From the NCBI GenBank assembly GCA_036507075.1, contig DASXQR010000003.1, positions 43,232 to 107,231 on the forward strand: a stretch of DNA of 64,000 bases. Direction: 5' to 3'. The DNA comes from Acidobacteriota bacterium. Lineage in GTDB: Bacteria; Acidobacteriota; UBA6911; JACQSX01. A program made the position numbers and the translations under genes. Shown in pieces: positions 1,502 through 64,000 of this stretch (positions are counted from its first letter, which is position 1; the number at the start of each line of letters is the position of its first letter). A model generated the notes under the pieces. That model saw only the letters and a program-made list of their open reading frames with translations, ran no database searches and was not told where the DNA came from.

Positions 1502-1592
1502 AGCGGATTGCGGAATGCGGAATGCGGAATATAGTCAAACTTAATTCTTCAAAGCAAACCAGATTGGCTCACTATTCCGCATTCCGCATTCG
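1502..1592. repeat. Heptamer inverted-repeat element (GAATGCG / CGCATTC)
   Basis: Left arm gcggattgcggaatgcggaatgcggaata; right arm tattccgcattccgcattcg. Confidence 0.85.
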
Positions 1593-1641
1593 AGTCGGGA
1601 GTCGCGGACCATTAACTCTCTGTGCGACAATGGTGCGGCGC

Positions 1642-2868
1642 ATGAGATTCGAGCTTTTTGTCGCGCTTCGCTATCTGAAGGCAAAGCGCAAACAGGCGGT
1701 CATCTCCGTGATTACGGCGATCTCGGTCCTTGGAGTCGCTGCCGGAGTAATGGCACTGGTCATCGCGCTCGCGTTGAACACCGGCTTTCAGGTGGAATTG
1801 CAAGCGAAAATTCTGGGCGCCACTTCTCATATCACGGTGCTGCAAAGCGACGGCCGCCCGCTTAAAGAGTTCAGAGCTGTCGTCGAGAAAATAAGGAACA
1901 TCAGCGGAGTTCAGGCGATCACGCCCACTATTTACGGGCAAGTGTTCTTTGTGGGAGGCCTTCAAAACCAGGGGGTACAGCTCAAAGGGATTGATCTCGG
2001 AAACGCCCAGGTGCCTGAAATTCTAAAAACCGTCGTGAGCGGGAATTTGAGCGCGCTTTCTTCCGATTCAGCCGTGCCGGGCATCATTATCGGCAGAGAA
2101 CTTGCGCGCAAGACCGGAACGGGACTGAATTCCGTGGTGCGCGCGATTTCCTCTGAAGGCGAGCTCTCACCGGTGGGGAAGTTGCCGCGCAGCCAGACCT
2201 TCAAAGTGGTAGCGGTGTTCGAGTCTGGCTTATGGGACTTTGATGCCAACTGGGTGTTCGTCACTCTGGACTCGGCACGGCGGCTGTTCCATCTTTCCCC
2301 CGAACAGGTCACGGCGCTCGAAGTCAACCTGCGCGATATTTATCAGGCTGGCCAGGCAGGGCGCGCCGTGGAAGAGAAACTGGGAGAAGGTTACCAGGCA
2401 CTTACATGGATTGAATTGAATCGCCCTCTCTTTTCCGCCCTCCGCCTGGAGAAGCTTGCCATGTTTATCGCCATCGGTCTGATCGTGCTGGTGGCTTCGT
2501 TAAACGTTGTTACCACGCTGACGATGATGGTGATCGAAAAGCAGAAGGACATCGCCATCCTTTCCGCGATGGGCAGCGACAGCAGAATCATCATGTGGAT
2601 CTTCATGCTGCAGGGAATCATTATCGGAATCATTGGAACCGTCATCGGCATGGGGGTGGGGGTGACGGCGAGCTGGTGGCTGAATCGATATAAGGTCATC
2701 CATCTGCAGCCGGACGTTTACTCGATTCCATTCGTTCCGTTTCACACGCGCTGGGAAGATGTACTGGCGATCGCAATGGTGGCCATGTTAATCACTTTTC
2801 TGGCAACCCTGCATCCGGCCAGAGCCGCCTCGCGCCTCGATCCGGTAGAGGCGCTGCGCTACGAATAA
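1642..2868 (+). CDS. lolE: Lipoprotein-releasing ABC transporter permease LolC/E
   Basis: MRFELFVALRYLKAKR N-terminus, FtsX-type TM helices, ends LDPVEALRYE; upstream ORF extension is repeat-derived. Confidence 0.92.
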   Translation: MRFELFVALRYLKAKRKQAVISVITAISVLGVAAGVMALVIALALNTGFQVELQAKILGATSHITVLQSDGRPLKEFRAVVEKIRNISGVQAITPTIYGQVFFVGGLQNQGVQLKGIDLGNAQVPEILKTVVSGNLSALSSDSAVPGIIIGRELARKTGTGLNSVVRAISSEGELSPVGKLPRSQTFKVVAVFESGLWDFDANWVFVTLDSARRLFHLSPEQVTALEVNLRDIYQAGQAGRAVEEKLGEGYQALTWIELNRPLFSALRLEKLAMFIAIGLIVLVASLNVVTTLTMMVIEKQKDIAILSAMGSDSRIIMWIFMLQGIIIGIIGTVIGMGVGVTASWWLNRYKVIHLQPDVYSIPFVPFHTRWEDVLAIAMVAMLITFLATLHPARAASRLDPVEALRYE

Positions 2869-2869
2869 A

Positions 2870-3120
2870 GGTTCCGGGTTTGCGGGTTGACGGGTTTAAG
2901 GTTGGCGAGTTGGAGAAAGGTTGCGAGTTTGCGGGTTGGAAAAAGGTTGCGAGTTTGCGGGTTAACGGGTTTCGAGTTGGCTGATTCAAAAATTGAAGAT
3001 TCAAAATTAATAACGCCGAAATCTCGCAACCCGTAACCCGCAAACCCGTAAACCCGCAACCCGTAACCGAAAACTCGTAACCCGAAACCCGAAAACCCGA
3101 AAACTCGAAAACTCGTAACT
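2870..3120. repeat. Hepta/octamer inverted-repeat element (GGGTTAC-GGGTTTGC / GTAACCC family)
   Basis: G/T-rich left arm about 2870-2980, AT-rich spacer, A/C-rich right arm about 3022-3120. Confidence 0.85.
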
Positions 3121-3129
3121 TGGCTGCCG

Positions 3130-3804
3130 ATGCCGTTTCTGAAAGTTCGGAACCTGAATAAGAGCTACCCTTCCGGACGCACACAGCTGCATGTGTTGCG
3201 CGACCTGTCGCTGGACGTGGAAAAGGGGGATTTGATCGCCGTTTTAGGGGCATCCGGCTCGGGCAAGAGCACTCTGCTGCATATGATCGGTGGAATGGAA
3301 TGTCCCGATTCCGGCTCCATTCAATATGGTGATCTGGAACTGGTCTCACTCGCTCGAGAAGAGCTTGCCCGCTTTCGAAATTCCAGAGTTGGATTCATTT
3401 TTCAATTTCACCACCTGCTGCCTGAATTCAGCGCGCTTGAGAATGTGATGTTTCCGTTGTTGATTGGCAGGCAACCGGCGGCGCGCTGCCGTTCACTGGC
3501 GATGGAGCTGCTCGCCGCGGTGGGATTGTCAGAACGGCAGAGTCACAAACCGGGAGAATTGTCGGGTGGAGAACAGCAGCGGGTGGCCATCGCTCGGGCG
3601 CTGGTGGGGAGTCCCGATATCGTGCTGGCGGATGAGCCGACCGGCAACCTGGATGCGCACACGGCCGAGTCGGTGCACCTGTTGCTGCAGCAACTCCATC
3701 AGCAAAGGCAGTTCACCGCCATCGTGGTGACCCATAATCCGGCCCTGGCTGAGATCTGCCGGGCGAGGAAATACATGCGAGACGGGCAACTTGTTGATCC
3801 CTAG
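3130..3804 (+). CDS. lolD: Lipoprotein-releasing ABC transporter ATP-binding protein LolD
   Basis: Walker [20 protein letters not shown]olD motif, [18 protein letters not shown]. Confidence 0.92.
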
Positions 3805-3911
3805 GGCATCTTAATGCGTACGGACTCGAACGGAGATGAAAATAGTTTTCTAAGTTCGCTGAAACCAAGCGTTAAATTGAATTTAAGGGTCATTTCTGGT
3901 ACAAAAGGACC

Positions 3912-9250: not shown

Positions 9251-9387
9251 CACCCAATTGTTTTGTGTCCTTTGTGTCTTTGTGGTGAAAAAACTCTTAT
9301 CAGGGCCGTTGGAACAGAAACGTTTTCTTTGCCGTATAAGAATTCTGGGTCTAAAATACAAGGTTTCGTAAAGGAGATTCAAGTTAC

Positions 9388-9996: not shown

Positions 9997-10120
9997 GGAA
10001 AGCAGAAAGCAGGAGGCAGGAAGCAGGAGGCAGGAAGCAGGAGGCCTGCTTCCTGCCTCCTGCCTCCTGCCTCCTGCCTCCTGTCTCCTGCTTCCTGCTT
10101 TCCGCCTTCCGCCTTCCGGC
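9997..10120. repeat. Heptamer inverted-repeat element (GGCAGGA / TCCTGCC)
   Basis: gcaggaggcaggaa.. directly followed by ..tcctgcctcctgcc. Confidence 0.9.
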
Positions 10121-12451: not shown

Positions 12452-12572
12452 TGAACCGCAAAGGGCGCCAAGACCGCTAAGGGTTTTAATTTGCACTTAG
12501 GCGAGTCACGGTACGGTGACGCCGCCTGAGATAGATGAAAAGCTTCGCGTTCTTGGCGCTCTTCGCGGTTCA
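12452..12572. repeat. 9-mer inverted-repeat element (AACGCCAAG family)
   Basis: tgaaccgcaaagggcgccaagaccgctaag ... cttcgcgttcttggcgctcttcgcggttca. Confidence 0.85.
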
Positions 12573-12595
12573 GCGTTTTGGGCGGGTCAACTTTC

Positions 12596-13405: not shown

Positions 13406-14391
13406 TTTCGCTGGCGGTGATCGGCGTTGGCGCTCTGGGTGAGCATCATGCCCGTCACCTTGCTTCCTTGCCCAACGCTCGCCTTGCAGCCGTGGTCGAC
13501 ATCCAACCACAGCGCGCAAACCAGGTAGCGCAGAGTCTCGGCGTGGAAGCAGCGACCGATTATCGCGTCCTGCTCGATCGCGTCCAGGCCGTGAGTCTCG
13601 CCGCTCCCACACGCCACCACGCCGACATCGCCGTCGATCTGCTGCGGCGCGGAATTCACGTGATGGTGGAAAAACCGATGGCGGATTCCTTGGCGCAGGC
13701 GGATCGCATGGTTGAGGCGGCCGCGCAAGGAGGCGCAATTCTTCAGGTCGGGCACTCGGAGCGCTTCAATCCCGCGCTGCGGGCCGTCCGGCCCTATGTC
13801 AAAGATCCACGTTTCTTTGAGGCGCATCGCCTGGGAATTTTTGCGCGGCGCAGCCTGGACATCGACGTTGTGCTCGATCTGATGATTCATGACCTGGATA
13901 TCATCCGCTCGCTGGTTGACTCCCCCGTCCGGTCGGTGCATGCGGTCGGTATTCCTATTCTCAGCTCCCGCATCGACATCGCCAATGCGCGGCTCGAATT
14001 TGAAAACGGATGCGTCGCCAATGTCACCGCCAGCCGGGTTTCCAGCGAGAAGGTAAGGAAGCTCCGTTTCTTTCAACCGCATGATTATGCCAGCGTTGAT
14101 TTCGCTGAACAGAAAGTTTCCTTTTACAGTCTCATGGAGAAGGAGGGTCAGAGGGCGATTGTGGATCGCAGGATTCAAGTGGTTACTGATGAGCCTCTGC
14201 GGCTGGAACTGGCGGCATTTGTGGATGTGGTTCAAAACGGCACACAACCCGAATGCGGTGGCAGAGAAGGTCGTGCTGCCCTGGAACTGGGACTGATGGT
14301 GGTAGAGGCGATGAAGACCCATTCGAATGCGGATTTCGGAATGCGGAATGGGCCCTCGAATGGGGAATGCGGAATGCGGAATGCGGAATAG
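13402..14391 (+). CDS. Gfo/Idh/MocA family oxidoreductase (GnnA-like by context)
   Basis: GVGALG Rossmann motif, VEKP, GHSERFNP, DLMIHD; last ~20 aa are repeat-encoded. Confidence 0.85.
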   Translation: MISLAVIGVGALGEHHARHLASLPNARLAAVVDIQPQRANQVAQSLGVEAATDYRVLLDRVQAVSLAAPTRHHADIAVDLLRRGIHVMVEKPMADSLAQADRMVEAAAQGGAILQVGHSERFNPALRAVRPYVKDPRFFEAHRLGIFARRSLDIDVVLDLMIHDLDIIRSLVDSPVRSVHAVGIPILSSRIDIANARLEFENGCVANVTASRVSSEKVRKLRFFQPHDYASVDFAEQKVSFYSLMEKEGQRAIVDRRIQVVTDEPLRLELAAFVDVVQNGTQPECGGREGRAALELGLMVVEAMKTHSNADFGMRNGPSNGECGMRNAE

Positions 14392-14465
14392 AAAGGTGAT
14401 TGGTTCCGGTTGCGAAGAGTTGAACAGAATATATTCCGCATTCCGCATTCCGAATTCCGCATTTG
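14325..14465. repeat. Heptamer inverted-repeat element (GAATGCG family) overlapping the gene 3' end
   Basis: ggaatgcggaatgcggaatgcggaata ... tattccgcattccgcattccgaattccgcatt. Confidence 0.85.
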
Positions 14466-16977: not shown

Positions 16978-17112
<135 letters not shown>

Positions 17113-18057
17113 TTGCTACACAAAAGCCAAACCAAGCCCGCTCTCATCTCCATTGTCGGTCCCACAGCCTCGGGAAAGTCGTCGTTGGCCCTGGAAATCG
17201 CCAAACATGTCGGTGGTGAGATCATCAGTTGCGACTCGCTGCAGGTGTATCGCGACTTGACGGTAGGAACGGGGAAGCCTTCGGTCGCCGAGCTGTCGCG
17301 TGTGAAACATCACCTGATCGGGATCCTGAAATTGGACGAGATTTTTTCCGCCGGCGATATGCAGCAGCGCGGCCGGGGCGTGATCGAAGAACTGGCGGCA
17401 AGAGGAGTTCCAGCGGTCGTCGCGGGTGGAACCGGCTTCTACTACCGCGCTCTGCTGTATGGTTTGTCGTCCGCGCCGGCCCGGTCGCAAGCGTTGCGCC
17501 GGCGCCTCCAACACATCGCGACGCGCAGGGGTGGTGACTTTCTGGTTCGCATGCTCGAGCGCGTCGATCCGCAAAGCGCCGCCCGCATCATGCCGCGTGA
17601 TCGAATGCGAATCGTGCGGGCGCTGGAGGTATTTTTCGCCAGTGGAATCCCGTTTTCCCGCTTCGCCGGCGGGCAAGACCAATGGCTGGATCAGTTTTGC
17701 TGGATCGGCTTGGGGCTGAATCCGGATCGAAAATCTCTTTATGATAAGATCAACTGTCGCGTGGAGCGGATGTTGCGCGGAGGCTGGCTGGAAGAGGTAA
17801 GCGATCTACTGGCGCAGGGAGCAAATCCGGAATGGAAGGCCTTTGAGGCGATCGGCTACCGGCAGGTGGTTGATTATCTGCGCCAGGGGGGCGATATCGA
17901 CGCTCTGGTGGAGCTCATCCGGCAGCAGACCCGCAATTACGCCAAGCGTCAGTGGACCTGGTTTCGCAGAGAGCCCGGGATCCGTTGGCTGCCCGGATTT
18001 GGAGAACAGCCCGAAATCATCGCGACAGCTCTAGAACACATTGACAGGTCACGTTGA
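17113..18057 (+). CDS. miaA: tRNA dimethylallyltransferase MiaA
   Basis: GPTASGKS, DSLQVYR, GGTGFY, TRNYAKRQWTWFR. Confidence 0.95.
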   Translation: MLHKSQTKPALISIVGPTASGKSSLALEIAKHVGGEIISCDSLQVYRDLTVGTGKPSVAELSRVKHHLIGILKLDEIFSAGDMQQRGRGVIEELAARGVPAVVAGGTGFYYRALLYGLSSAPARSQALRRRLQHIATRRGGDFLVRMLERVDPQSAARIMPRDRMRIVRALEVFFASGIPFSRFAGGQDQWLDQFCWIGLGLNPDRKSLYDKINCRVERMLRGGWLEEVSDLLAQGANPEWKAFEAIGYRQVVDYLRQGGDIDALVELIRQQTRNYAKRQWTWFRREPGIRWLPGFGEQPEIIATALEHIDRSR

Positions 18058-18059
18058 AG

Positions 18060-18270
18060 AGTTCACGAGTTACGGGTTTACGGGTTTGCGAGTTACGGGT
18101 TGCGGGTTTACGGGTTGCGGTTAGCTTGTTGACTTTATTAATATTCGGAGCCCGCTTGTGGCGATACTGAACCTAAACCCGTAACTCGCAAACTCGTAAC
18201 CCGCAAACTCGTAACCCGTAAACTCGTAAACCCGTAACTCGTAAACCCGTAACTCGTAAACCCGCAACGC
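18060..18270. repeat. Hepta/octamer inverted-repeat element (GGGTTAC / GTAACCC family)
   Basis: cgagttacgggtttacgggtttgcgag ... cccgtaactcgcaaactcgtaacccg. Confidence 0.88.
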
Positions 18271-18273
18271 AAG

Positions 18274-19737
18274 ATGGTTGACTTTGAGCCCGTTATTGGT
18301 TTGGAGGTTCACGCCCAACTGCTTACGCAGTCGAAAATTTTTTGCGGCTGCAGCACGCGATTCGGCGGCGAACCAAATACTCGCACCTGTCCGGTGTGCC
18401 TGGGGCTCCCTGGCGCGCTTCCGGTGTTGAATCGCGAAGCCGTCACCATGTCCATCAAGACAGCGCTCGCTTTGAATTGCCGTCTCAATCAGCGATCCGT
18501 GTTCGCGCGCAAGAACTATTTTTATCCCGACCTTCCGAAGGGATACCAGATTTCCCAGTTTGATCTACCCCTGGCCGAGGACGGATGCGTCGAATTGCTC
18601 ACCGGGGAGAGATCGGAAGCCGGAAACATCGTAAATTACAAGAAGAAAAAATTCGGCATTATCCGTCTTCACCTGGAAGAAGACGCGGGAAAATCGATTC
18701 ACGACGCAGGCGATACCACTTACGTTAATCTCAATCGCAGCGGCGTTCCGTTGATCGAAATTGTTTCCCGGCCGGACTTCCGTTCTTCTCAGGAAGCATA
18801 CGATTACGTCAGTTACCTGCGCCGCGTCCTTCTTTATCTTGGTGTAAGCGATGGCAACATGGAGGAAGGGAGCCTTCGCTGCGACGCAAACGTCTCGGTA
18901 AGACCGAAAGGCCGGGAAAAATTCGGGACTAAAACCGAGATCAAGAATTTGAACTCGTTCCGCTTTCTGCAAAAGGCGCTTGATTACGAGATCAAGCGGC
19001 AGGTTAGCGAAATCGAGGCCGGCAGGGACATTTCGCAGGAGACGCGCCTGTGGGACCCGGATCGCGAACAGACATTCGTGATGCGCTCGAAGGAGGAAGC
19101 TCATGATTATCGTTATTTTCCCGAGCCGGACCTTCCCCCGCTGGAGGTCTCCGATGATTGGCTGCAGGAGGCCAGGAACTCGATTCTTGAATTGCCGGAG
19201 GCAAAAAGAGAGCGTTTTTGCGCCCGTTTCGGCTTGAGTGATGTGGATGCTCTGCTGATCTGCTCGTCCAGGGAATCTGCCGATTATTACGAAAAAGCAG
19301 CCGTCAGGAGCAAGAATCCTGGTGGAGTGGCCCGCTGGTTCATCGGAGATTTTTCCGCTCTGTTGAAGCGCGACGGCGGCGATCTCTCGCAAGTTAAGAT
19401 TCGACCCGAGCACCTGGCTGAAATGGTCGAGATGATTGATTCGGGCGAGATAAGTGGAAAGATCGCGAAACAGATTTTCGAGGAGATCTGGTCGACGGGG
19501 GAATCCCCTCAGGATGCGGCACGCCGGCTGGGTATGCGCCAGATCAGCGACAGCGCGGCGCTCGGCCAGATCGTGGAATCCGTAATTGCATCCAATCCCG
19601 GGCAGGTTGCAGACTATCGAGCCGGCAAGACAAAGCTGCTGGCATTCTTCGTCGGCCAGGTGATGAAGGAAACCAGGGGCCAGGCGAACCCGCACTTGTT
19701 AAACGAGCTGCTGAGGAGAAAACTGGGGCAAGTCTAG
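18274..19737 (+). CDS. gatB: Asp/Glu-tRNA amidotransferase subunit B
   Basis: [41 protein letters not shown]. Confidence 0.97.
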
Positions 19738-19867
19738 AAGGCGGCGGAAGGCTGGAGGCAGGAAGCAGGAGGCAGGAGGCGGAAGGCAGGAAGCAGGAGG
19801 CGGAAGGCAGGACGCAGGAGGCAGGAAGCAGGAGACTGCCTCCTGCCTCCTGCCTTCCGCTTTCCGC
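19737..19867. repeat. Heptamer inverted-repeat element (GGCAGGA family)
   Basis: Long ggcaggaagcaggagg left arm; short ctgcctcctgcctcctgccttccgc right arm. Confidence 0.88.
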
Positions 19868-20335: not shown

Positions 20336-20657
20336 GCTGGTATTTCTGCTGTTTTTAACCGCTGTTCTGGCGGTTCATTCGGGCCTGGCTCTGAGGACGG
20401 AATTGGCAGGTTTCCGCCTCTACCAGGCCACTCTCTCGCCTGTTTTTGCGAAGACGGGAGTGATCCACTGTCGTTTTCAGCCGACCTGTTCGGCTTACGC
20501 CGACCGTGTGCTCAGAGCCAACGGTTTCTACAAGGGAAACGTCGAAATCGCGCGACGACTGGCAGCCTGTTCCCCAGCCGGTTATCTTTACGAAAAAATC
20601 ACCACAAAGGCACAAAGGACACAAAGAATATTCGTGTTCTTCGTGCCTTTGTGGTGA
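20319..20657 (+). CDS. yidD: Membrane protein insertion efficiency factor YidD-like
   Basis: YQATLSP..CRFQPTCSAY..RLAACSP motif. Confidence 0.72.
   Translation: MRTSFKLVFLLFLTAVLAVHSGLALRTELAGFRLYQATLSPVFAKTGVIHCRFQPTCSAYADRVLRANGFYKGNVEIARRLAACSPAGYLYEKITTKAQRTQRIFVFFVPLW
20599..20657. repeat. 9-mer inverted-repeat element (ACACAAAGG family)
   Basis: tcaccacaaaggcacaaaggacacaaag ... ttcgtgttcttcgtgcctttgtggtga. Confidence 0.85.
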
Positions 20658-20863
20658 TTTTCCCCCTTTCTAAGGACAAGGCCTCGTCGCTCCTCTCGGA
20701 ACGTCAAAAAACTGTCGCTTCTGACGCTTCGAAATACTTCTTTTCTAAGAAGTTACAGGGCTCACAGAACCCATCAACTATAATTTTTTGCTGTAAACCG
20801 GTTTGAGCTCTGTGCGTCTATACAGCACGTTGAGTGTTTGTTGAGCAATAGGAGGTTGCTGAC

Positions 20864-25801: not shown

Positions 25802-25883
25802 CGAGACTTTCCTCTCGGGTACCGGGCCACTGCAGAGCGTAAGCCTGTCAGTTTGCGATGTTGAAACCGTCAGTCCTTCGCAA

Positions 25884-39790: not shown

Positions 39791-39992
39791 CCGTCCACGA
39801 GCACGAGCACGTCAACATCCACGACTACGTCTACGTTTTCTGGATACGGCGGCGATTGGTAGACTGCAGAGAATTAAAGGCTGTTTAGAGGATGATGTTG
39901 TCGTGATCGTGGACCTGAGACGTAGTCGTCGACGTGCTCGTGCTCGTGGGCGTGGACGGCTTTTTGGGTTGCGGTCTACGGCTGCGCTGCGG
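39791..39992. repeat. 6-mer inverted-repeat element (GCACGA family)
   Basis: ccgtccacgagcacgagcacgtc ... gacgtgctcgtgctcgtgggcgtggacgg. Confidence 0.82.
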
Positions 39993-42373: not shown

Positions 42374-42445
42374 TAAATTCTTAAATAACTTCGTGAAATT
42401 CGTGTAAATTCGTGAAAATTCGTGCTCGTAAAATTCGTGCTTCCG

Positions 42446-45620: not shown

Positions 45621-45715
45621 AGTGGAGAGACGGCCCGAGGGCCGTCTCAGGGAATATCGCTGGATCGCTCTGCCGTCGACTTCGCCTGAGACGGCCCCCA
45701 GGCCGTCTCTCCTCT
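45621..45715. repeat. REP-like doublet (GGAGAGACGGCC..GGCCGTCTC)
   Basis: gagacggcccgagggccgtctc ... gagacggcccccaggccgtctc. Confidence 0.8.
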
Positions 45716-45790
45716 CTCTTTGGTTTTGTAAACAGCGCTCGCGTCGGATATGGTAGACGGTTGTGAGACGTCAAATACTGGAAGGTGCTC

Positions 45791-46567: not shown

Positions 46568-46659
46568 TCACCGCAGAGGCGCAGAGAACGCAGGGAATGC
46601 GCAGAGTTTTGTTTGCGTGTCTCTGCGCAACCTCTGCGTTCTCTGCGCCTCTGCGGTGA
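46568..46659. repeat. 9-mer inverted-repeat element (CGCAGAG family)
   Basis: tcaccgcagaggcgcagagaacgcag ... ctctgcgttctctgcgcctctgcggtga. Confidence 0.88.
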
Positions 46660-46748
46660 TTTTTGAATTCGATGACTCGTAATCCGTGATACTAATGACC
46701 ATTGACCGATGACCATTTCGGTTTCGTCCCTGGTTTTCACGGTGCGTC

Positions 46749-51904: not shown

Positions 51905-51906
51905 CC

Positions 51907-52414
51907 GGAGGCAGGAGGCAGGAGGCGGAAGGCAGAAGGCGGAAGGCGGAAGGCGGAAGGCGGAAGGCGGAAGGCAGGAGGCAGGGGGCAGGGGGCAGGA
52001 GGCAGCAGGCAGGAGGCAGCAGGCAGGAGCGTGATCGACGCCATCAGTACCGCGATCCGTCATCGACGCCATCAGTACCGCGATCCGTTAGGTCGCGGCG
52101 GGGAATGTAAGTCGACTCGTTGCCACCGCTGGATCGAAGGCAGAAGGCGGAAGGCGGAAGGCGGAAGGTAGGAAGCAGGAGGCAGGAAGCAGGAGGCAGG
52201 AGGCAGGGGGCAGGAGCGTGATCGACGCCATCAGTACCGCGATCCGTTAGGTCGCGGCGGGGACTGTAAGTCGACTCGTTGCCACCGCTGGATCGAAGGC
52301 AGAAGGCGGAAGGCAGAAGGCAGAAGGCAGAAGGCGGACACTGAAAGACTGAAAGACTGAAAGACTGAAAGACTGAAAGACTAACGACGAACCACAGACT
52401 ACGGACCACTGACT
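51907..52414. repeat. Composite insert: GGCAGGA/GGCGGAA arrays, copies of a ~79-bp element, ACTGAAAG octamers
   Basis: Element copies at 52034 (partial), 52062 and 52221; octamers about 52340-52382. Confidence 0.9.
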
Positions 52415-52420
52415 ATTCCA

Positions 52421-52963: not shown

Positions 52964-53076
52964 GGACCAAGCGGAATGCGGAATGGGGAATGCGGAATGC
53001 GGAATGGGGAATGCGGAACGATGAGCCTTGAAGCTGAGCGAAAGGGAAAGAGTAAGACTCTACGGGCCTTGGGCAA

Positions 53077-53928
53077 ATGAAACTAAGTCACAAATACCTG
53101 ATCGAAACAGAAATTACCCGGGTGAATCGAAGAGTGGATCAACCTCTTTCCCCTCATTCCTCCGGTCCCGCTCCCACTCTCCCACTCTCCCGCTCTCCCA
53201 CTCTCCCACTCTCCCACTCTCCCACTCGCCCACTCGCCCGCTCTCTCGCTCTCTCGCTCTCCCGCTTCCTGCTTCGCTGTATCTGCGCAGCTTTATGCCT
53301 GGCCGTCGCGGGCTGTCGCCGCGACATGCAGGACACGCCCCGGTATGAGGCTTATGAGGCAAGCCCGTTCTTTAAGGACGGCCTTTCTTCACGATCCCTC
53401 GTGCCGGGCACGATTCCTCGCGGATATCTTAAAGAGGATCCGGCATTCTATTTCGGAAAATTGGCAGGCGGCGCAGCGCCTGCGCGCGTCCGCACCCCCA
53501 TATTGACCGCCAGTGGGACTGCGACCACTGCTTTGCCGGAGTCGGACCTGATCACCCGGATTCCGCTTTCCGTCACAAGGCCGTTATTGGATCGTGGACA
53601 GGATCGCTTTGACATTTACTGCGCCCCCTGCCATGGGCGTGTCGGTGACGGTGGAGGAATGATCGCGCGTCGAGGTTTTCGTCCGCCTCCCACATTTCAC
53701 AGTGACCGGCTTCGGCAGGCTGCTGCAGGACACTTTTTTGACGTGATAACCAGCGGGTTCGGCGCCATGCCGGATTACGCCTCTCAATTGTCGCCGCAGG
53801 ATCGATGGGGGGTGATTGCCTATATCCGGGCGCTCCAGTTGAGCCAATGGGCTTCAGTTTCAGACGTTCCGGAGGAAGAGCGGCGCAAGCTGGAGATCGA
53901 TCGGCAAGGACCAAAGGTCGCCCGGTGA
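53077..53928 (+). CDS. actE: ACIII monoheme cytochrome c lipoprotein
   Basis: Lipobox AVAGC, DMQDTP, CAPCHG; N-terminus contains an octamer array. Confidence 0.88.
   Translation: MKLSHKYLIETEITRVNRRVDQPLSPHSSGPAPTLPLSRSPTLPLSHSPTRPLARSLALSLSRFLLRCICAALCLAVAGCRRDMQDTPRYEAYEASPFFKDGLSSRSLVPGTIPRGYLKEDPAFYFGKLAGGAAPARVRTPILTASGTATTALPESDLITRIPLSVTRPLLDRGQDRFDIYCAPCHGRVGDGGGMIARRGFRPPPTFHSDRLRQAAAGHFFDVITSGFGAMPDYASQLSPQDRWGVIAYIRALQLSQWASVSDVPEEERRKLEIDRQGPKVAR
53171..53266 (+). repeat. 12 x CTCCCACT-type octamer array, in frame within the actE 5' end
   Basis: Counted 12 degenerate units = 96 nt. Confidence 0.9.
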
Positions 53929-54004
53929 GAAGGCGGAAGGCGGAAGGCAGAAGGCAAGGAGCAGGAGGCAGAAGGCAGAAGGCGGAAGGCAGGCAGGAGG
54001 GTCG

Positions 54005-54158
54005 TCGCACGCCAGCCGAACCGCGCGCGTCAGCAAGCGGACCCTCGATTTTGCGGTTCTCACGGGGCTCTAATCATTCGGAAGCTCTCAGATAGCCTCC
54101 CGGCTGGAATCAGAGTTGGGACTGCGAGGGTCCGCTTGCTGACGCGCGCGGTTCAGCT
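54005..54158. mobile_element. REPIN/MITE-like element, copy 1
   Basis: Inverted ends gaaccgcgcgcgtcagcaagcggaccctcg / cgagggtccgcttgctgacgcgcgcggttc; interior matches 61508-61666 in reverse. Confidence 0.8.
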
Positions 54159-54269
54159 AAGGAGGAGGCGGCAGGAGGCAGGGAGGCAGGCGGCAGGAGG
54201 CAGGGAGGACTATGAAGGGGACGGAACGGTTATGAAGGAGAAGGAAGGGGAGGAGCGGAGGGCTGGGTT

Positions 54270-55484: not shown

Positions 55485-55651
55485 GGACGCACTTGCTGCG
55501 TCCTCGAGTTTTGACATTTACAGCCACGCGGCATGCCGCGCGTTTCGAGTTTCGGCCGTAGAGACGCGGCATGCCGCGTCTGAAGTGGACGCGACATGTC
55601 GCGTCCGGAGCGCCGCAAAGCGGCGCCGGGCGCGATTTATCGCGTCTCTAC
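55481..55651. repeat. Cluster of GTAG-type REP hairpins
   Basis: GTAGAGACGCGGCATGCCGCGTCT at 55558, cgcgatttatcgcgtctctac at about 55631, further hairpins. Confidence 0.8.
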
Positions 55652-55691
55652 GGTTCTGAATTCGCGTCAAAAGCGGTGAGAGATCGTATCG

Positions 55692-56204
55692 ATGAGCCAC
55701 TCAGAAGAGACCCCTGATACCAGCCACATCCAGAACCCGGAAGTTTCTCACGAGCGGAGTGATGTAAGCGTTCGCGGCATCCTGATTTTTGGCGTGGGCC
55801 TGATCATTTCGGCGGTAGTGATTCATCTGCTGCTGTGGTGGTTGATGATTTTCTTTGAGCATCGGGAAATCGCAAAGGAGCCCAAGGCATCACCTATGGC
55901 AGGCGGGCGACAGCGCTTGCCGCCCGAACCGCGCCTGCAACTGGCGCCGGGGCACGAAGTACACCCTGACATTGAAATGAAGAAGCTTCTTGATAAAGAG
56001 CGGGAAGTGCTTGGCAGTTACGGTTGGATTGATCCCGCCTCCGGCGTGGTGAGAGTCCCGATCGAGCGCGCCAAGGATTTGATTGCACAGCGCGGAATAC
56101 GGGAAGGCGGAAGGCAGAAAGCAGAAGGCGGGAGGGAGAAAGCGGAAGGCGGAAGGCAGAAAGCGGAAGGCGGAAGGCAGAAAGCGGAAGGTAAAAAATT
56201 CTAA
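55692..56204 (+). CDS. actG: ACIII subunit G-like single-TM protein
   Basis: HERSDV, one TM, PPEPRLQ, YGWID..VPIERA; position between actF and sco; repeat-encoded tail. Confidence 0.72.
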   Translation: MSHSEETPDTSHIQNPEVSHERSDVSVRGILIFGVGLIISAVVIHLLLWWLMIFFEHREIAKEPKASPMAGGRQRLPPEPRLQLAPGHEVHPDIEMKKLLDKEREVLGSYGWIDPASGVVRVPIERAKDLIAQRGIREGGRQKAEGGREKAEGGRQKAEGGRQKAEGKKF

Positions 56205-56205: not shown

Positions 56206-57141
56206 ATGCCTGTCGATTGCAGAATGAGGTTTCGGAAGCCTGGTGCCTTGGTGGTAAGAAAAAATGGAACCACCAAGGCACCAAGCCAGGTTTTCCACCT
56301 GGGTGCCGGAAACGGCTGTGTGAAGAGTTACTCAAGGGCGTGGTTAACTTTGATTCTCATTGCCGTCGTGTCCGCGTCGCTTCGCGCCCAGACAGGACTT
56401 CCACCGATGCTGCGCCAGGTGGGAATCCAACAGAGATTGGGCGGACAGATTCCCCTCGATCTGCGCTTTCGGAACGAGCGAAATGAAGTTGTCAGAATTG
56501 GCGACTACTTTGGCGAGCGCCCCGTAGTTCTGGCGCTTGTTTACTACGAATGCCCGATGCTCTGTACTCAGGTCTTGAACGGCCTGGCCGGCGCGCTCAG
56601 AGCGGTGCCGATGGAACCAGGCGAGCAGTTCGACATTCTGGCAATCAGCTTCAACGCGAAGGAAACAGCGGAACTTGCCGCCCGTAAAAAAGAGACCTAC
56701 CTGGAACGATACGGTCGGGCCAGTGCCGGAAAAGGCTGGCATTTTCTTACCGGGGACCAGGAGCCTATCGATCGGCTCGCAGGGTCGGTCGGTTTTCGAT
56801 ACTCCTATGATCCGGCCAGCAGGCAGTTTGCCCATGCCAGCGGCATTATGGTTCTCACTCCCGACGGAAAAATCAGCCGTTACCTTCCGGGAATTGAATA
56901 CGACCCGCGCGATCTGAAGCTGGCGCTGCTGGAAGCATCGGGCGGGCGTATCGGTTCACCTGCCGACCGGCTGCTGCTTTACTGTTACCAGTATGATCCA
57001 GCCACCGGCAAATATGGTCCGGTAATAATGAACCTGGTAAGGCTTTCCGCGATCGCCACAGTGCTGGCGCTCGCCGCATTGATGCTGCTGCTCCGCCGTA
57101 AAAGCGCCCAGCCGGCAGATTCTGAATTCGGGGGAAACTGA
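56206..57141 (+). CDS. sco: SCO family copper chaperone
   Basis: YYECPMLC, WHFLTG, FAHASG; start uncertain. Confidence 0.9.
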   Translation: MPVDCRMRFRKPGALVVRKNGTTKAPSQVFHLGAGNGCVKSYSRAWLTLILIAVVSASLRAQTGLPPMLRQVGIQQRLGGQIPLDLRFRNERNEVVRIGDYFGERPVVLALVYYECPMLCTQVLNGLAGALRAVPMEPGEQFDILAISFNAKETAELAARKKETYLERYGRASAGKGWHFLTGDQEPIDRLAGSVGFRYSYDPASRQFAHASGIMVLTPDGKISRYLPGIEYDPRDLKLALLEASGGRIGSPADRLLLYCYQYDPATGKYGPVIMNLVRLSAIATVLALAALMLLLRRKSAQPADSEFGGN

Positions 57142-58170: not shown

Positions 58171-59774
58171 GTACAGCAGCGGCAGAGGTTGAAGCAGGGT
58201 CTAATTACATCAACGTCAGCTACGGCGTGAAGTCGTGGTTGTTAACGCTCGATCATAAACGGATCGCTCTCCTTTACCTGGCATCGGTTACGCTGTTTTT
58301 CTTTCTGGGCGGCGCCTATGCGATCCTGATTCGACTGGAGTTGATGACGCCTGCCGGCGACCTGGTGCAGGCGCATACCTACAATAAAATGTTCACGCTG
58401 CACGGCGTGATCATGGTGTTCTTTTTTCTCATCCCGGCCATCCCGGCTGTTCTGGGAAACTTTCTGGTACCGATCATGATTGGGGCAAAGGATCTGGCGT
58501 TCCCCAGACTGAACCTGGCAAGCTGGTACATTTACATGCTGGGAGCTCTGTTCACGCTTTACGTCGTTCTGAGAGGAGGCGTGGATACAGGCTGGACGTT
58601 TTATACGCCGTACAGCTCGGCCTTCTCGAACACTTATGTGATTGTCACAGGATTGGGAATCTTCATAACGGGATTTTCTTCGATTCTCACAGGCCTCAAT
58701 TTTATCGTCACCATTCATACCATGCGGGCTCCGGGAATGACCTGGTTCCGGCTGCCGCTTTTCATCTGGTCCCACTATGCAACGAGCATCATCATGGTGC
58801 TGGGAACCCCGGTGCTGGCCATCACTCTGGTTCTTCTGATCCTGGAGCGTACTATTCACATCGGGATTTTTGATCCCACGCTGGGTGGAGATCCGATCTT
58901 GTTCCAGCATCTCTTTTGGTTTTACTCGCACCCGGCCGTTTACATTATGGTTCTGCCGGCGATGGGAGTGACCAGCGAGTTGGTGGCCAATATGTCGCGC
59001 AAGTCGATTTTCGGTTACCGGTTTGTGGCGTTTGCCAGCATCGCGATTGCCGTGTTCGGCTTTCTGGTCTGGGGCCATCACATGTTTGTCACCGGCCAGT
59101 CGGTGTATGCAGGGATGATTTTTTCATTTCTGAGCTATGCCGTGGCGATTCCCTCGGCAGTGAAGGTCTTCAACTGGACAGCCACTCTTTACCGAGGCTC
59201 TGTGTCCTGGCAGACGCCGATGCTTTACGCGCTGGGATTCATCGGCTTATTCACCATTGGAGGAATGACCGGCCTTTTTCTGGCAGCGTTAGGAGTCGAC
59301 ATTCACGTGACGGACACCTACTTTGTAGTGGCCCATTTCCACTACATCATGGTTGGCGGCACGCTGATGGGATACCTCGGCGGGCTGCATTTCTGGTGGC
59401 CCAAGATTACCGGCCGAATGTATCCGGAGGCGTGGGCCAGATTTGCGGCCCTGGTCGTTTTTGTCGGCTTTAATCTGACCTTCTTTCCGCAGTTCGTACT
59501 CGGTTACATGGGAATGCCGCGCCGCTATCACGCGTATCCGGAGGAATTCCAGGTTCTGAACGTGATGTCGTCCGCCGGCGCGTCGATCCTCGGGGTGGGA
59601 TTGCTGATTCCGATGGCGTATCTGATCTGGTCGATGCGTTACGGTCGCCCGGCGGGCCCAAACCCCTGGATGGCCGCGGGCTTGGAATGGCAGACCTCGT
59701 CTCCGCCTCCTCCGGAAAATTTCCACGTGACGCCGGTTGTGAGGGAAGAGGCATACACGTTTCGGAAGACGTGA
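58167..59774 (+). CDS. coxA: Cytochrome c oxidase subunit I, type A2
   Basis: [40 protein letters not shown]. Confidence 0.97.
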
Positions 59775-60135
59775 AGGCAGAAGGCAGAAGGCGGAAGGCG
59801 GAAAGCAGAAGGCAGAAGGCGGCAGGCGGAAGGCAGAAGGCAGGAGGCAGGAGGCAGGAGGCAGGAGGCAGAGGCAGGAGGCAGGAGGCAGGAGGAGGAG
59901 GCGTGGTCGACGCCATCAGTACCGCGATCCGCTAGGTCGCGGCGGGGAATGTAAGTCGACTCGTTACCACCACTGGATCGAAGGCGAACGGCGGAAGGCA
60001 GGAAGCGGGAGGCGGGAGGCGGGAGGCGGAAGACAGTTGAACAGAGCCGAGCGCGAAAGGTGGGAGTCGTAACTCGACACTCGTAACCCGAAACCCGATA
60101 ACCCGAAACTCGATAACCCGAAACCCGTAACTCGA
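59775..60135. repeat. Composite insert: GGCAGAA/GGCAGGA arrays, one ~79-bp element, GTAACCC arm
   Basis: Element at 59907-59984; cgtaacccgaaacccgataacccg at 60066-60135. Confidence 0.88.
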
Positions 60136-60149
60136 AGTCAGGAGAAATC

Positions 60150-60809
60150 GTGGCGGAAAGTCATGTCAGTCCCCATCCGGCGCTGGCGCATCATTTTGAG
60201 AATCTGGAACAACAGCGGGAAGCGGGTACGCTGGGAATGTGGGTTTTCCTGGTCACGGAAATCATGTTCTTCGGCGGCATGTTCCTGGCCTATCTGGTAT
60301 ATCGATCGGCATTTCCCCGTATGTTCGCTGAGGCCAGCAGCCAGCTTGACCTGACACTGGGCGCCGTGAACACCGTGGTGCTCATTTGCAGCAGTTTCAC
60401 CATGGCTCTGGCGGTTTTCGGCGCGCAGGTCGGCAACAGGAGGATGCTGGTTTTCTTTTTGCTGCTCACCATTCTGCTCGGCCTTGCTTTTCTGGGAATC
60501 AAGTCCCTCGAGTACCGTCATAAGTTTGAGCATCATCTGTTTCCGGGAAGTCATTTTAGATATCAGGGTTCCAATGCCCGTGAGGCGCAGATTTTCTTCG
60601 GACTCTACTTTGCCATGACCGGCATGCACGCTCTGCATATGATCATCGGTGTGGGTCTGTTGTCCGTGCTGGCGTGGATGGCAAAACGAGGCCGCTTTTC
60701 GCCGGAGTATTTCTCTCCAGTCGAACTTTCGGGGCTTTACTGGCACTTTGTTGACATTATCTGGATCTTTCTCTTCCCGCTGCTCTATTTGATAGGAAGG
60801 CACCCTTAG
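60150..60809 (+). CDS. coxC: Cytochrome c oxidase subunit III
   Basis: GMWVFLVTEIMFFGG, TGMHALH, YWHFVDIIW; AGGAG SD. Confidence 0.95.
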   Translation: MAESHVSPHPALAHHFENLEQQREAGTLGMWVFLVTEIMFFGGMFLAYLVYRSAFPRMFAEASSQLDLTLGAVNTVVLICSSFTMALAVFGAQVGNRRMLVFFLLLTILLGLAFLGIKSLEYRHKFEHHLFPGSHFRYQGSNAREAQIFFGLYFAMTGMHALHMIIGVGLLSVLAWMAKRGRFSPEYFSPVELSGLYWHFVDIIWIFLFPLLYLIGRHP

Positions 60810-61052
60810 AGGCAGGAGGCAGGAGGCAGGAAGCAGGAGGCAGAAGGCAGTTTTTGCCACCGTTTACTCGGCGTTAGGAAAAACCGAACCGCGCGCGTCA
60901 GCAAGCGGACACTCTCAGCTAACCGCCCCCTATCGGTAGACTCTTGACCTTTGCAGGCCATACTCTCCGACTGGGAGCCAGAAGGCAGGGAGCAGGAGGC
61001 AGGAGGGGCCCTGCCCGCGAGCCGAACCGCGCGCGTGAGCAAGCGGACCCTC
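60809..61052. repeat. GGCAGGA arrays with two solo ACCGCGCGCGT(C/G)AGCAAGCGG arms
   Basis: Arms at about 60884-60913 and 61021-61052 in the same orientation. Confidence 0.8.
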
Positions 61053-61134
61053 CTGAGAAACGTAGCGAAATTTAAGAATCAAATGACAATAATCAGGAGT
61101 TCTTGAATCTTGAATTCGTAATTCGTAAATTTTT

Positions 61135-61425
61135 ATGCATATCGTCCCTCGCAAAACTTACCTGCTGATCTTTGTAACACTGTTGGCGCTGACGGCTCTC
61201 ACGGTGGCCGCGGCATTCGTCAATCTGGGACGGATGAACGCCGTAGTAGCGCTTACGATCGCCTGCGTTAAAGCTCTTCTGGTTACTCTCTATTTCATGC
61301 ATGCGCGATACAGCTCAAAGCTCACGTGGGTCATCATCGCCTCGGGGGCGCTGTGGCTCGGCATTATGCTCACTTTGACCATAACCGACTATCTGAGCCG
61401 CGGCGCGATGGGAACTTCGCTGTAG
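61135..61425 (+). CDS. coxD: caa3-type oxidase subunit IV
   Basis: Three TM helices, KALLVTLYFMH motif. Confidence 0.88.
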   Translation: MHIVPRKTYLLIFVTLLALTALTVAAAFVNLGRMNAVVALTIACVKALLVTLYFMHARYSSKLTWVIIASGALWLGIMLTLTITDYLSRGAMGTSL

Positions 61426-61773
61426 CAGAAGGCGGAAGGCAGAAGGCAGAAGGCGGAAGGCGGAAGGCAGGAGGCAGAAGGCAGGAGGCAGGAGGCGGGG
61501 GGGCTTGGCACGCCGGCCGAACCGCGCGCGTCAGCAAGCGGACCCTCGCGGTCCCAATTCTGATTCCAGCCGGGAGGCGTTCTGAAGCTTCCCGATGATT
61601 AGAGCCCCCTGAGAACCGCAAAATCGAGGGTCCGCTTGCTTGACGCGCGGTTCGGCTTGCGTGCGAGGATCCTCTTACCTCCTGCCTCTTGCCCTCCTGC
61701 CTCCGGCCCCCGCCTCCTGCCTCCTGCCTCCTGCCTCCTGCCTCCTGCCTCCTGCTTCCTGCCTTCCGCCTTC
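61425..61773. mobile_element. GGCAGGA/TCCTGCC arms enclosing REPIN/MITE-like element copy 2 (61508-61666)
   Basis: Left array 61425-61497, right array 61677-61773; interior is the reverse complement of 54005-54158. Confidence 0.8.
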
Positions 61774-61803
61774 CTCCACCGAGAACCTTTCTGCTAAATA
61801 GGG

Positions 61804-61832
61804 TTGCGAATATGGTACCAAACTGGTACTAT
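61804..61832 (+). promoter_or_regulatory. Putative suf promoter with overlapping palindromic operator
   Basis: TTGCGA-17 bp-TACTAT with TG extension; ATGGTACCA-aac-TGGTACTAT palindrome at 61812-61832. Confidence 0.6.
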
Positions 61833-61851
61833 TTATATGGGAGCGTTGGTT

Positions 61852-62322
61852 ATGATCCGAATGAGTAAACAGACCGACTATGGGATCGTCCTGCTGACGC
61901 ACCTGGCGAGTACGCCTGACGCATCGTACAGTGCTCGGGAACTGGCTGCAGTGATGCATCTTCCGCTGCCCATGGTGAGCAAGATCCTAAAGCTGTTGAC
62001 CAGAGAGGGCTTGCTGTTTTCTTACCGGGGCCCATCGGGAGGTTACCGTCTGGCTCGGCAGCCAAACCAGATAACAGTGGCGGAAATGATCAATGCTTTG
62101 GAAGGGCCCTTTGCTTTCATGGAGTGCATTGAAACGCCGGGGACCTGCAGGCAGGAGTCATTTTGTCCGGTACGAGGCAATTGGTACACGATCAACAGTA
62201 CCGTGGTCAGGGCACTCCGTGGAATCACATTGTCGGATATGACGGGCACCATACCCGGTATGCCAGGAGCAGGCGCAAGTCCGCAGCATCCCGGCGGCGG
62301 ACAATTGCCGGTCATCGCGTAA
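61852..62322 (+). CDS. Rrf2 family SUF-system regulator
   Basis: [21 protein letters not shown], three Cys ([15 protein letters not shown]); upstream of sufB. Confidence 0.9.
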
Positions 62323-62464
62323 GCGTTTCACGTCCGGTGTTATATCCTGGTCGGCCCTCTGCAGATTCTGTTCTCTCGGGTCGCAGGTGCAGCGCCGTCG
62401 GCTGTTGCAGGGTTGCAGCGCGCAGCGGAAAAGTTATTTTTGTTATCGAGGATCTAATAACATC

Positions 62465-63913
62465 ATGCCTACAGAGACAAAGGAAATTCAGGAACTGGCA
62501 AACCAGGAGTACAAATACGGTTTTCACACCGACATCGAGACTGAATCGGTTCCGCCTGGTTTAAACGAAGAAATTATTCGCCTGATTTCAGAAAAGAAGA
62601 ACGAGCCTGAGTTCATGCTGGAATGGCGGTTGAAGGCATACCGCCACTGGCTGACGATGGAAGAGCCGAAGTGGGCGAATATTCGCTATCCCTCCATCGA
62701 TTACCAGAGCATCATTTATTATTCAGCCCCCAAATCGCGGGCCGACGGGCCCCAGAGCCTGGACGAGGTCGATCCAAAGCTGCTGGAAACCTACAAGAAG
62801 CTGGGCGTGCCGCTGGAAGAGCAGGCGCTCCTTGCGGGAGTCGCCATAGACGCCGTGTTCGACAGCGTCTCGGTTGCCACTACCTTCAAGGAAAAGCTGG
62901 CCGGGCTGGGAATTATTTTCTGCTCATTCTCTGAGGCGGTGCAGAACCATCCCGATCTGGTGAAAAAGTATCTCGGTTCGGTGGTTCCGTACAGCGATAA
63001 CTTCTTTGCCACGCTGAATTCGGCGGTTTTCACCGACGGCTCCTTCGCCTACATTCCCAAAGGTGTGCGCTGTCCGATGGAGCTTTCCACCTACTTCCGT
63101 ATTAACGCGGCAAAAACGGGGCAGTTTGAACGGACTTTGATCATCGCCGAGGAAGGCAGTTACGTCAGCTATCTTGAAGGATGCACCGCCCCGATGCGAG
63201 ACGAAAACCAGCTCCACGCAGCCGTTGTCGAGCTGGTGGCGCTCGATGATGCTCAAATCAAGTATTCCACAATCCAGAACTGGTACCCGGGGGACAACGA
63301 AGGAAAGGGTGGAATTTACAACTTTGTCACCAAGCGCGGCAAGTGTCTGGGTGTGAACTCAAAGATCTCCTGGACTCAGGTGGAAACCGGTTCGGCGATC
63401 ACCTGGAAATATCCGAGCTGCATTTTGCAGGGGGACAACTCCATTGGTGAGTTCTATTCGGTCGCGCTGACCAAGGCAAGACAGCAGGCCGACACGGGCA
63501 CCAAGATGATCCACATTGGAAAGAACACGCGCAGCACCATCGTTGCGAAAGGAATATCGGCCGGCCATGGACAGAACACGTACCGCGGGCTGGTTAAGAT
63601 CCTCAAGGGAGCTGCCGGTGCCCGCAATTACACACAATGTGATTCGATGCTGATCGGTGATAAGTGCGGAGCGCACACGTTTCCCTACATCGAAATCAAG
63701 AACAGCACCGCGCACATGGAACATGAAGCTTCCACTTCGAAGATCGGAGAGGATCAGATTTTCTATCTGAAGCAGAGGGGTTTGTCCGCCGAGGATGCCG
63801 TGTCGATGATCGTGAACGGTTTCTGTAAAAAGGTCTTCAAGGAGCTGCCGATGGAGTTTGCTGTTGAGGCGCAAAAACTTCTCAGCGTAAGTCTTGAAGG
63901 CAGTGTTGGGTAG
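62465..63913 (+). CDS. sufB: Fe-S cluster assembly protein SufB
   Basis: [33 protein letters not shown] end; GAGG SD. Confidence 0.97.
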
Positions 63914-63916
63914 CGG

Positions 63917-64000
63917 AAGGCAGAAGGCAGAAGGCAGAAGGCAGAAGGCAGAAGGCAGAAGGCAGAAGGCAGAAGGCAGAAGGCAGAAGGCAGAAGGCAG
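63917..64000 (+). repeat. Perfect (AAGGCAG)12 array running off the window end
   Basis: 84 nt of identical heptamers after the sufB stop. Confidence 0.95.

Follow-up and report, generated by a model that had tools for sequence, protein, structure and literature searches.

The gene junctions of a 64,000-nt stretch of an Acidobacteriota genome (contig DASXQR010000003.1, positions 43,232 to 107,231; the whole stretch is hereafter the window) are populated by hairpin elements in which an arm of degenerate tandem 6-10-mers is followed by a spacer and the reverse-complement arm. Tandem arms are seen at about 30 of 50 window junctions (counted by eye), and the same arm families bracket small one-gene cassettes elsewhere in the genome, encoding a four-helix-bundle (PF05635) or a GxxExxY (PF13366) protein. 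We give slightly better than even odds, a probability of roughly 0.55, to the gene-less hairpins being non-autonomous elements that are spread as single-stranded DNA (ssDNA) by cognate small proteins, with their spread timed to competence in this lineage. On the best reading the elements are REPIN-like, with new partner proteins, and were recruited to competence in this lineage.

The genome under study (G000; 6.1 Mb, 233 contigs, 95.7% complete) was compared with three genomes of the same bacterial family (G001, G002 and G003; LpxD 66-69% identical) and one of the same order (G005). Coordinates are those of the window unless a contig is named. Genes were called with our own dicodon model, in which start positions are approximate. 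Arm families were defined by 16 regular expressions of our own, which miss some arms, so arm counts are lower bounds; window arms were located with Tandem Repeats Finder and by direct reading. The window holds housekeeping genes (lol, clpC, bamA, lpx, miaA, gatB, an alternative-complex-III/cox operon and suf), the act gene names presumed from operon order. It was originally predicted to lack a transposase, and an NCBIfam scan of its 51 open reading frames (ORFs) found neither a transposase nor a cassette gene. All PF05635, PF13366 and PF01797 matches in the genome lie outside the window, which also has no Rfam match.

Paired arms at gene ends

Tandem arms are present at all 20 coordinates listed in the original prediction, with the unit given there or its rotation or complement, and at about a dozen further sites. 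The same prediction held that unit sequence is not shared between sites; instead, the repeat units of G000 sort into approximately 16 genome-wide families that do share sequence, the commonest being family A with 313 arms. We counted 2437 intergenic and 223 genic arms in G000, where two shuffles of the intergenic DNA yielded 18 and 14, and 1077 of the 1132 period-7 arrays are intergenic though intergenic DNA makes up 18% of the genome. Left-then-right pairs number 616, as against 25.9±4.5 in 200 label permutations (maximum 35), and the purine-rich arm is 5' in pairs; the elements are thus extragenic inverted doublets with a spacer, occurring well above chance, as was supposed. Reverse-order pairs number 42, of which 39 are one short family K hairpin; hairpins of this reversed polarity lie at 25756 and 56240, a departure from the single architecture described for the window sites. 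The start word of this short hairpin is found in 141 genome copies, and its back-to-back form also lies 3' of GxxExxY genes. Genome-wide, arms occupy 1436 of 4253 junctions (34%), so that occupancy of most junctions describes the window but not the genome.

Placement directly after stop codons is accurate for many sites: the first arm lies no more than 30 nt from a stop in 54% of cases versus 35% expected, and left arms start at a median of 7 nt past the stop in 6-8-mer families (n=587) and 20 nt in other families (n=513). The exceptions include the element at 1502, in a divergent promoter region, and arms at 14325 and 56100, inside last codons; in the genome 52 of 4001 genes have an arm within their last 130 nt. 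The arms at 14325-14391 and 56100-56204 have become part of the C-terminal ends of two host proteins and are absent from relatives.

Orthologous junctions in G001-G003 and G005 show discrete gain of elements and replacement of one family by another, and not gradual expansion only. Between lpxA and lpxI there is a family J element in G000, and the genes abut in G001, G002 and G003; conversely fabZ and lpxA overlap in G000 and are separated by a family H pair in G001 and a family C pair in G003, and coxB and coxA overlap in G000 and have an H pair between them in G001. The lolC-lolD junction holds family C in G000 and family H in G001. Upstream of the orthologous first gene of the act operon, G001 has a complete four-helix-bundle cassette where G000 has a family O pair. 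These relatives are too distant for exact insertion points to be read. The ompH-lpxD junction of G001 (contig C328, L087) contains a 1126-nt stack of nested non-tandem hairpins resembling repetitive extragenic palindromic (REP) sequences, with no clear gene, the window having a 124-nt B pair there.

Plain slippage, which the original prediction doubted, is insufficient because polarity and termini are fixed, variant patterns are shared, and orthologous junctions are discretely filled or empty; arms of independent origin with neither pairing nor polarity, as expected of slipped simple repeats, are not what is observed. An alternative is that the arms are host-driven RNA or DNA structures: old cassettes would have seeded them, slippage and fold-back repair would have lengthened them and recombination would have moved them, and they would be retained for a role as terminators, as RNase III sites or in stabilising mRNA, the cassette genes being passengers. 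The closeness of left arms to stops would suit this, as would the heavier occupancy of convergent junctions (306 of 673, 45%) than of co-directional (886 of 2902, 31%) or divergent ones (244 of 678, 36%), the existence of orphan arm families without a cognate gene, and the excision by RNase III of a related 23S rRNA intervening sequence (IVS) whose ORF is decaying (available text of PMC4990558). However, lone arms at co-directional junctions have no strand bias (209 left versus 219 right), the 244 divergent junctions are occupied, and empty orthologous junctions work without elements while families replace one another. We consider a host-driven origin unlikely.

Copying of whole elements is directly visible. 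Family start words recur as exact copies (56, 96, 245, 82 and 83), termini are fixed in 8-10-mer families, and 130 of 413 spacers fall into 25 clusters, each confined to one family; whole elements are therefore copied. The spacers had been described as short and unique, which is true of 194 of the 413; the other 219 match elsewhere, those outside clusters matching other intergenic elements, and at 9997 and 19737 the spacer is only ~2 nt. Captured host genes were considered as a source of spacers and rejected, since the 63 'genic' matches were, by eye, element sequence at gene edges or doubtful gene calls.

Complementarity extending beyond the termini is greater within than between elements (28% versus 9% in family J, 27% versus 5% in L, and 8% versus 2% in K), and ten pairs are nested inside a pair of another family with no crossing pairs. 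We infer either insertion into existing hairpins or fold-back homogenisation. Target-site duplications of the kind left by miniature inverted-repeat transposable elements were not found: in six 8-10-mer families, 6-nt direct repeats near the termini are not above those with swapped flanks.

The original prediction had proposed a dedicated spreading or synthesis process, or empty cassette sites; synthesis as the main process is not supported, given the copied spacers. If the arms were synthesised de novo from a template, telomere-like repeats would be added to broken DNA ends by a reverse transcriptase together with an Avd-like four-helix bundle. Strict polarity and unique spacers would fit, and PF05635 is homologous to the Avd protein of diversity-generating retroelements (DGRs), according to the available parts of PMC10053308. 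Yet the intact G000 reverse transcriptase looks like that of a group II intron and has no arms close to it, neither G000 reverse transcriptase locus (C146, C119) has a four-helix-bundle gene or arms nearby, and no reverse transcriptase was found in arm-rich G004 (77% complete) or G144. Copies moreover share spacers and internal variants, and strict in-register chimeras between arm families are rare (five). Synthesis of this kind is highly improbable. G003 (L321) and G001 (L322) encode a reverse transcriptase of ~500 aa that contains YADD and does not resemble the group II intron enzyme of G000.

An assembly artefact might be suspected in a fragmented 233-contig assembly, and the comparison with other runs covers one element and uses contigs only. 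A contig from an independent study (run X2), however, spans 11853-14300 with no differences (region compared, 10300-14300), including the 12452 element unchanged, and both relatives and named isolates show the same architecture. Run X1 may be the source sample, and runs X3 and X4 yielded short pieces only. For the 12452 element an artefact is effectively refuted, and overall its chance is negligible.

Thirty window sites were folded as ssDNA and compared with dinucleotide shuffles. The z-score is -3.1 or lower in 25; the other five (51905, 52970, 56100, 59773 and 60809) have unpaired or mismatched arms. The elements of the window, to which no strand is assigned, are as follows, with the z-score or other basis in parentheses.

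1..18: right arm of family K (CACAAAG type), truncated at the window start (arm scan)
1503..1591: family A pair (GGAATGC / GCATTCC) at the divergent junction upstream of lolC/E (z -5.1)
2869..3122: family C pair (GGGTT[AGT]C), lolC/E-lolD junction, where G001 has its family H pair (z -8.2)
9262..9284: lone family K right arm, 3' of bamA (arm scan)
9997..10120: family B pair (GGCAG[GA]A / GGCGGAA) between an ompH-like gene and lpxD, nearly spacerless (z -11.5)
12452..12576: family J pair (AACGCCAAG, termini TGAACCGC..GCGGTTCA), lpxA-lpxI, with gap 0 in G001, G002 and G003 (z -6.2)
14325..14465: family A pair, its left arm translated as the C-terminus of a Gfo/Idh/MocA gene that is ~20 codons shorter in two relatives (z -8.7)
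16978..17113: family A pair between a SpoIID/LytB gene and miaA (z -4.5)
18058..18270: family C pair, miaA-gatB (z -10.4)
19737..19866: family B pair starting within the gatB stop codon (z -4.5)
20598..20662: family K pair (ACACAAAGG, termini TCACCAC..GTGGTGA) (z -8.6)
25756..25803: short family K hairpin of reversed polarity, CTTGGTG first and CACCAAG second (z -9.6)
26283..26465: family I pair (6-mers CACGTC/CACGAC) (z -6.8)
28541..28645: family A pair whose start is the shared GGATTTC variant, a 25-mer with 56 genome copies (z -3.1)
29379..29718: family D pair (GTCATTG) around a nested non-tandem REP-like hairpin (z -7.4)
31954..32062: family J pair, convergent junction (z -6.3)
32970..33014: lone family M right arm (CGCGAAAG type) (arm scan)
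33856..33978: family A pair, convergent junction (z -10.2)
36066..36270: family J pair, doubled (nested) (z -15.6)
37250..37400: ATGGGGACAGACCCC repeats, a motif also found beside a Y1 gene on C163, and a family J right arm (repeat reading)
38542..38800: nested 259-nt near-perfect palindrome with H-like outer arms, J arms and a non-repeat inner stem (z -32.6)
39791..39962: family I pair (z -4.6)
42386..42441: lone family N right arm (CACGAATT type) (arm scan)
45624..45716: non-tandem REP-like hairpin (GAGACGGCCC; the word is in 259 genome copies) (fold and copy count)
46568..46660: family O pair (CGCAGAG type), 5' of the act/cox operon (z -13.8)
51905..52420: three unpaired family B left arms alternating with a repeated REP-like unit (z +1.3)
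52970..53265: arms that do not match, the left one of family A and the right one of family G (GGGAGAGT) (z +2.1)
53928..54215: family B left arms flanking a REP-like hairpin (GAACCGCGCGCGTCAGCAAGCGG; 32 genome copies) (fold and copy count)
55485..55660: clustered short non-tandem REP-like palindromes (fold)
56100..56195: family B left arm, forming the translated C-terminus of gene 55692-56204 (arm and gene comparison)
56240..56286: short family K hairpin of reversed polarity (z -6.1)
59773..60140: family B left arms, a REP-like unit and a family C right arm, coxA-coxC, where G001 has a family K arm (arm scan)
60809..61130: family B left arms and REP-like half hairpins, coxC-subunit IV (arm scan)
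61425..61778: family B pair around a nested REP-like hairpin (z -12.1)
63914..64000: family B left arm directly 3' of the sufB stop, truncated at the window end (arm scan)

A second lpxD paralogue is present on the same contig outside the window (C3 20477-21466), the window copy being at 10134-11180.

Small genes bracketed by the same arm families

The original prediction also held that similar arms flank small four-helix-bundle and GxxExxY genes in other genomes, and this link is real: the same arm families bracket both, in G000 and across phyla. G000 holds seven four-helix-bundle, six GxxExxY and 12 Y1 loci, several of them broken. The arms around the four-helix-bundle genes belong to the 6-8-mer families B, C, D, E, G and I, so that the PF05635 ORF lies inside terminal inverted repeats, and those around GxxExxY genes are CAC/CGC-type 8-10-mers of families J, K and N; the C199 four-helix-bundle gene, for instance, has B arms and the C83 GxxExxY gene has J arms. 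Beside the 12 Y1 loci stand long hairpins of non-tandem sequence instead of tandem arms. Three of the 13 cassette loci (C199:14027, C37:5024 and C152:80590) adjoin sigma-70-family genes, above the expectation from 34 such genes in the genome.

The association recurs in other organisms. Among 80 four-helix-bundle and 80 GxxExxY loci, from which 4 and 11 respectively were left out for having less than 200 nt of flank, locus-matched inverted arms are present at 41 of 76 and 39 of 69, compared with 2% and 8% when flanks are swapped; arms in direct orientation are found at 12 and 26 loci. By eye, the arm begins at the stop of the upstream gene in many of these. Arm profiles are common to 73% of 30 four-helix-bundle and 44% of 55 GxxExxY protein pairs that are at least 65% identical, but to at most 1% and 4% of pairs below 55% identity, loci with a weak arm profile or a short protein being omitted. 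In a four-helix-bundle phylogeny, a quick tree in which 11 of 73 branches are starred and long branches meet, a clade with support of 96 unites G001 with a cyanobacterium and a verrucomicrobium, and GGGGAG-type arms occur in all three. At least 42 matches to the B-arm pattern are present in six of ten genomes carrying a B-clade gene, whereas 120 genomes of the phylum in which that gene was not found have at most 12. High counts of the G-arm pattern occur only in G001 and G003, and the cyanobacterial and verrucomicrobial carriers have 3 and 0 matches, a weak test.

In an alignment of ten GxxExxY proteins the D-E-K catalytic and Q-x3-Y columns are invariant, and the available text of PMC3424549 lists GxxExxY among PD-(D/E)XK families, its function unknown and its transfers numerous. 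Its structural model has a pLDDT of 95.8, the fold being assigned from Pfam and the aligned residues, and no PDB sequence relative was found at E<=1. The four-helix bundle matches PDB entries 2GSC and 2RLD, five chains each.

A promoter-like motif shared with competence genes

Boxes resembling TTCGCA-N17-GTTATGT stand at fixed spacing upstream of 19 cassette and Y1 genes of G000. A position weight matrix trained only on these 19 matches the genome 56 times at 25 bits or more, versus 0 in three column-shuffled controls. It found two further Y1 genes, placing the motif at 21 of the 25 cassette and Y1 genes; the four genes without it lack their 5' end or lie at a contig edge. There are 37 non-seed matches of at least 21 bits with a downstream ORF, of which 32 were scanned (five left out) and 13 have a domain match: comEA, recA, ssb, pilin, comM, recG, radC, comEC, ERCC4-HhH, comF-like, recQ, dprA and uvrD. 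In four same-family genomes the motif precedes 22 of 25 cassette loci belonging to many protein clades, as well as comM (3/3) and dprA (3/3). We infer from sequence that the motif is a competence promoter, and its sharing with DNA-uptake genes suggests that the elements would spread while the cell takes up DNA. Competence coupling has apparently been gained by many unrelated cassette clades in this family; a passenger gene would not need such a motif, which weighs further against host-driven arms. A shared dprA/comM-cassette promoter outside this family was sought and was not found in the distant genomes compared. Given the restriction of the motif to this family, competence coupling is a family trait and does not define the element class.

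Several other features of the motif and its surroundings were noted. A cluster of XRE-HTH, ECF sigma and zinc-finger/TPR anti-sigma-like genes at C17:70859-72967 (L324, L325) is a candidate regulator; it is conserved in G002 (L341) and G001 (L342), and a divergent small ORF is preceded by the motif in all three genomes, with a second copy at the end of the sigma gene noted in G000. Strong copies precede genes without a Pfam match at C28:2406, C28:992, C97:18558, C48:57106, C192:99296, C30:18398 and C83:144467, which are candidate new competence or mobile genes. In G005 three cassette genes (L091, L096 and L120) share a variant upstream motif, by eye TCGTAC with a GT box after another 16-17 nt; neither the dprA nor the comM of that genome was seen to have it. 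Immediately 3' of dprA, G001 (C383:8760-8999) and G003 (C73:3253-3480) each have a broken GxxExxY cassette.

The proposed spread of gene-less hairpins by cognate proteins would work as follows. The window sites would be gene-less copies of small one-gene cassettes sharing their arm families, and each protein clade would recognise its own arm unit. The GxxExxY PD-(D/E)XK domain would nick hairpin ssDNA, and the Avd-like four-helix bundle may bind the arms and borrow a host or element nuclease. New copies would land at gene ends, often in the centre of an existing hairpin, and would be tolerated in operons because reading frames and downstream starts stay usable. More broadly, and only tentatively, PF05635 and PF13366 proteins may be the mobilising partners of a widespread and undescribed class of ssDNA hairpins with tandem-repeat arms, with clade-specific units and insertion into gene-end hairpins without target duplication, many unrelated cassettes and RAYT-like Y1 genes having converged on the host competence promoter in this family to act on incoming DNA.

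A number of observations weigh against these proposals. Among distant cassette loci outside this family, the motif exceeds the null at only 2 of 79 in one set and 0 of 73 in the other, each of 45 other genomes of the phylum has at most two matches (44 in G000), and 17 distant dprA/cassette upstream pairs (of 19 dprA loci, two being dropped for lack of a start or sufficient flank) are no more alike than swapped pairs; distant cassettes often have no room for any promoter. Family A, the commonest, and several others have no cognate gene in a 95.7% complete assembly, and several G000 cassette genes are broken. Four of the ten B-clade carriers have 0-2 B-pattern matches, and the six with high loads represent two lineages. 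The overall Mantel rho for four-helix-bundle proteins is 0.10 (null maximum 0.092), and co-phylogeny of arm unit and protein can arise by linkage alone. Cassette remnants in spacers are rare (promoter score above 14 in 1 of 371, and one protein match), 194 spacers are unique, and own-versus-other arm identity is about equal in several 7/8-mer families. To our knowledge the four-helix bundle has no known catalytic function.

The motif could also reflect a domesticated transformation filter in which, as with SsnA and the NTS, competence-induced proteins cut or tag incoming ssDNA that bears (or lacks) arms, the arms tuning recombination and spread being secondary. The motif common to DNA-uptake genes and cassettes accords with this, as do the conserved nuclease residues of the GxxExxY alignment and a repeat-gene-repeat layout like that of NTS-ssnA-NTS, whose nuclease restricts transforming DNA (available text of PMC11893778). 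Fast family turnover at the same junctions, broken cassette genes and cross-phylum clades look selfish instead, and the motif is absent outside this family in the genomes compared. A filter seems to us quite unlikely, though it is compatible with protein-mediated spread of the hairpins, and the two are not exclusive.

Comparison with known systems

The comparisons below extend as far as the available parts of the papers cited. REPIN/RAYT systems (Bertels and Rainey 2011, PMC3116915) consist of extragenic inverted doublets with a variable spacer that form ssDNA hairpins, occur in hundreds of copies, show compensatory changes, and have a partner gene flanked by the same repeats. Those doublet features are also found here, and G000 has in addition RAYT-like Y1 genes with hairpins of their own. 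The arms differ, being degenerate tandem 6-10-mers where REPINs have REP palindromes of 20-40 nt; they are not REP palindromes with a conserved tag, and separate non-tandem REP-like hairpins occur nested. The partners are PF05635 and PF13366 proteins and not HUH Y1 enzymes, and a competence-like motif is present.

In the Ssn/NTS/SRM system (Chenal et al. 2025, PMC11893778), too, the gene for a small single-domain nuclease is bracketed by hairpin repeats of its own, and there is a link to natural transformation. Ssn proteins, however, are GIY-YIG nucleases, whereas the proteins here are a predicted PD-(D/E)XK enzyme and a four-helix bundle with tandem-repeat arms; the genes inside tandem arms are PF05635 and PF13366, no genome-wide GIY-YIG search having been made. 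Each cassette pairs a protein with its adjacent predicted substrate, so a protein-arm panel is directly assayable, as for Ssn.

The four-helix-bundle family is also that of 23S IVSs encoding S23p (Warrier et al. 2016, PMC4990558; PDB 2GSC), in which terminal inverted repeats enclose the ORF and tandem heptamers precede it. These IVSs replace a hairpin tetraloop, much as the nested insertions proposed here would. The present elements differ in lying outside rRNA, at protein-gene junctions, mostly without a gene, and with thousands of arms. Heptamer arrays of GGGAATC in Xanthomonas and GGGGA(C/T)T in Nostoc (Rehm et al. 2015, PMC4692102) and paired 7/8-mer sites in Geobacter metallireducens (Aklujkar et al. 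2009, PMC2700814) are likewise intergenic and near stops, and often form inverted pairs a variable distance apart, two Xanthomonas genomes having 70 and 75 of them. They number 1-4 families as against about 16 here, and have been read as quadruplexes or regulator sites, with no partner gene or mobility mechanism described in the available parts. Our literature search, thin on subscription journals, found no description linking PF05635 or PF13366 proteins to tandem-repeat arms or competence.

The proposed element class brings into one testable scheme two common proteins whose function is unknown, the unexplained abundance of bacterial 7-8-mer arrays, and rRNA intervening sequences that carry ORFs; if true it would provide one mechanism for both bacterial heptamer arrays and ORF-bearing 23S intervening sequences. 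For this uncultured lineage of soil bacteria the motif defines a predicted competence regulon together with a candidate locus for its regulator, and the sharing of the motif suggests mobile elements that exploit transformation and do not block it. In their proposed working the elements are like both REPIN/RAYT and Ssn/NTS, but they have neither the proteins nor the repeat type by which either system is recognised.

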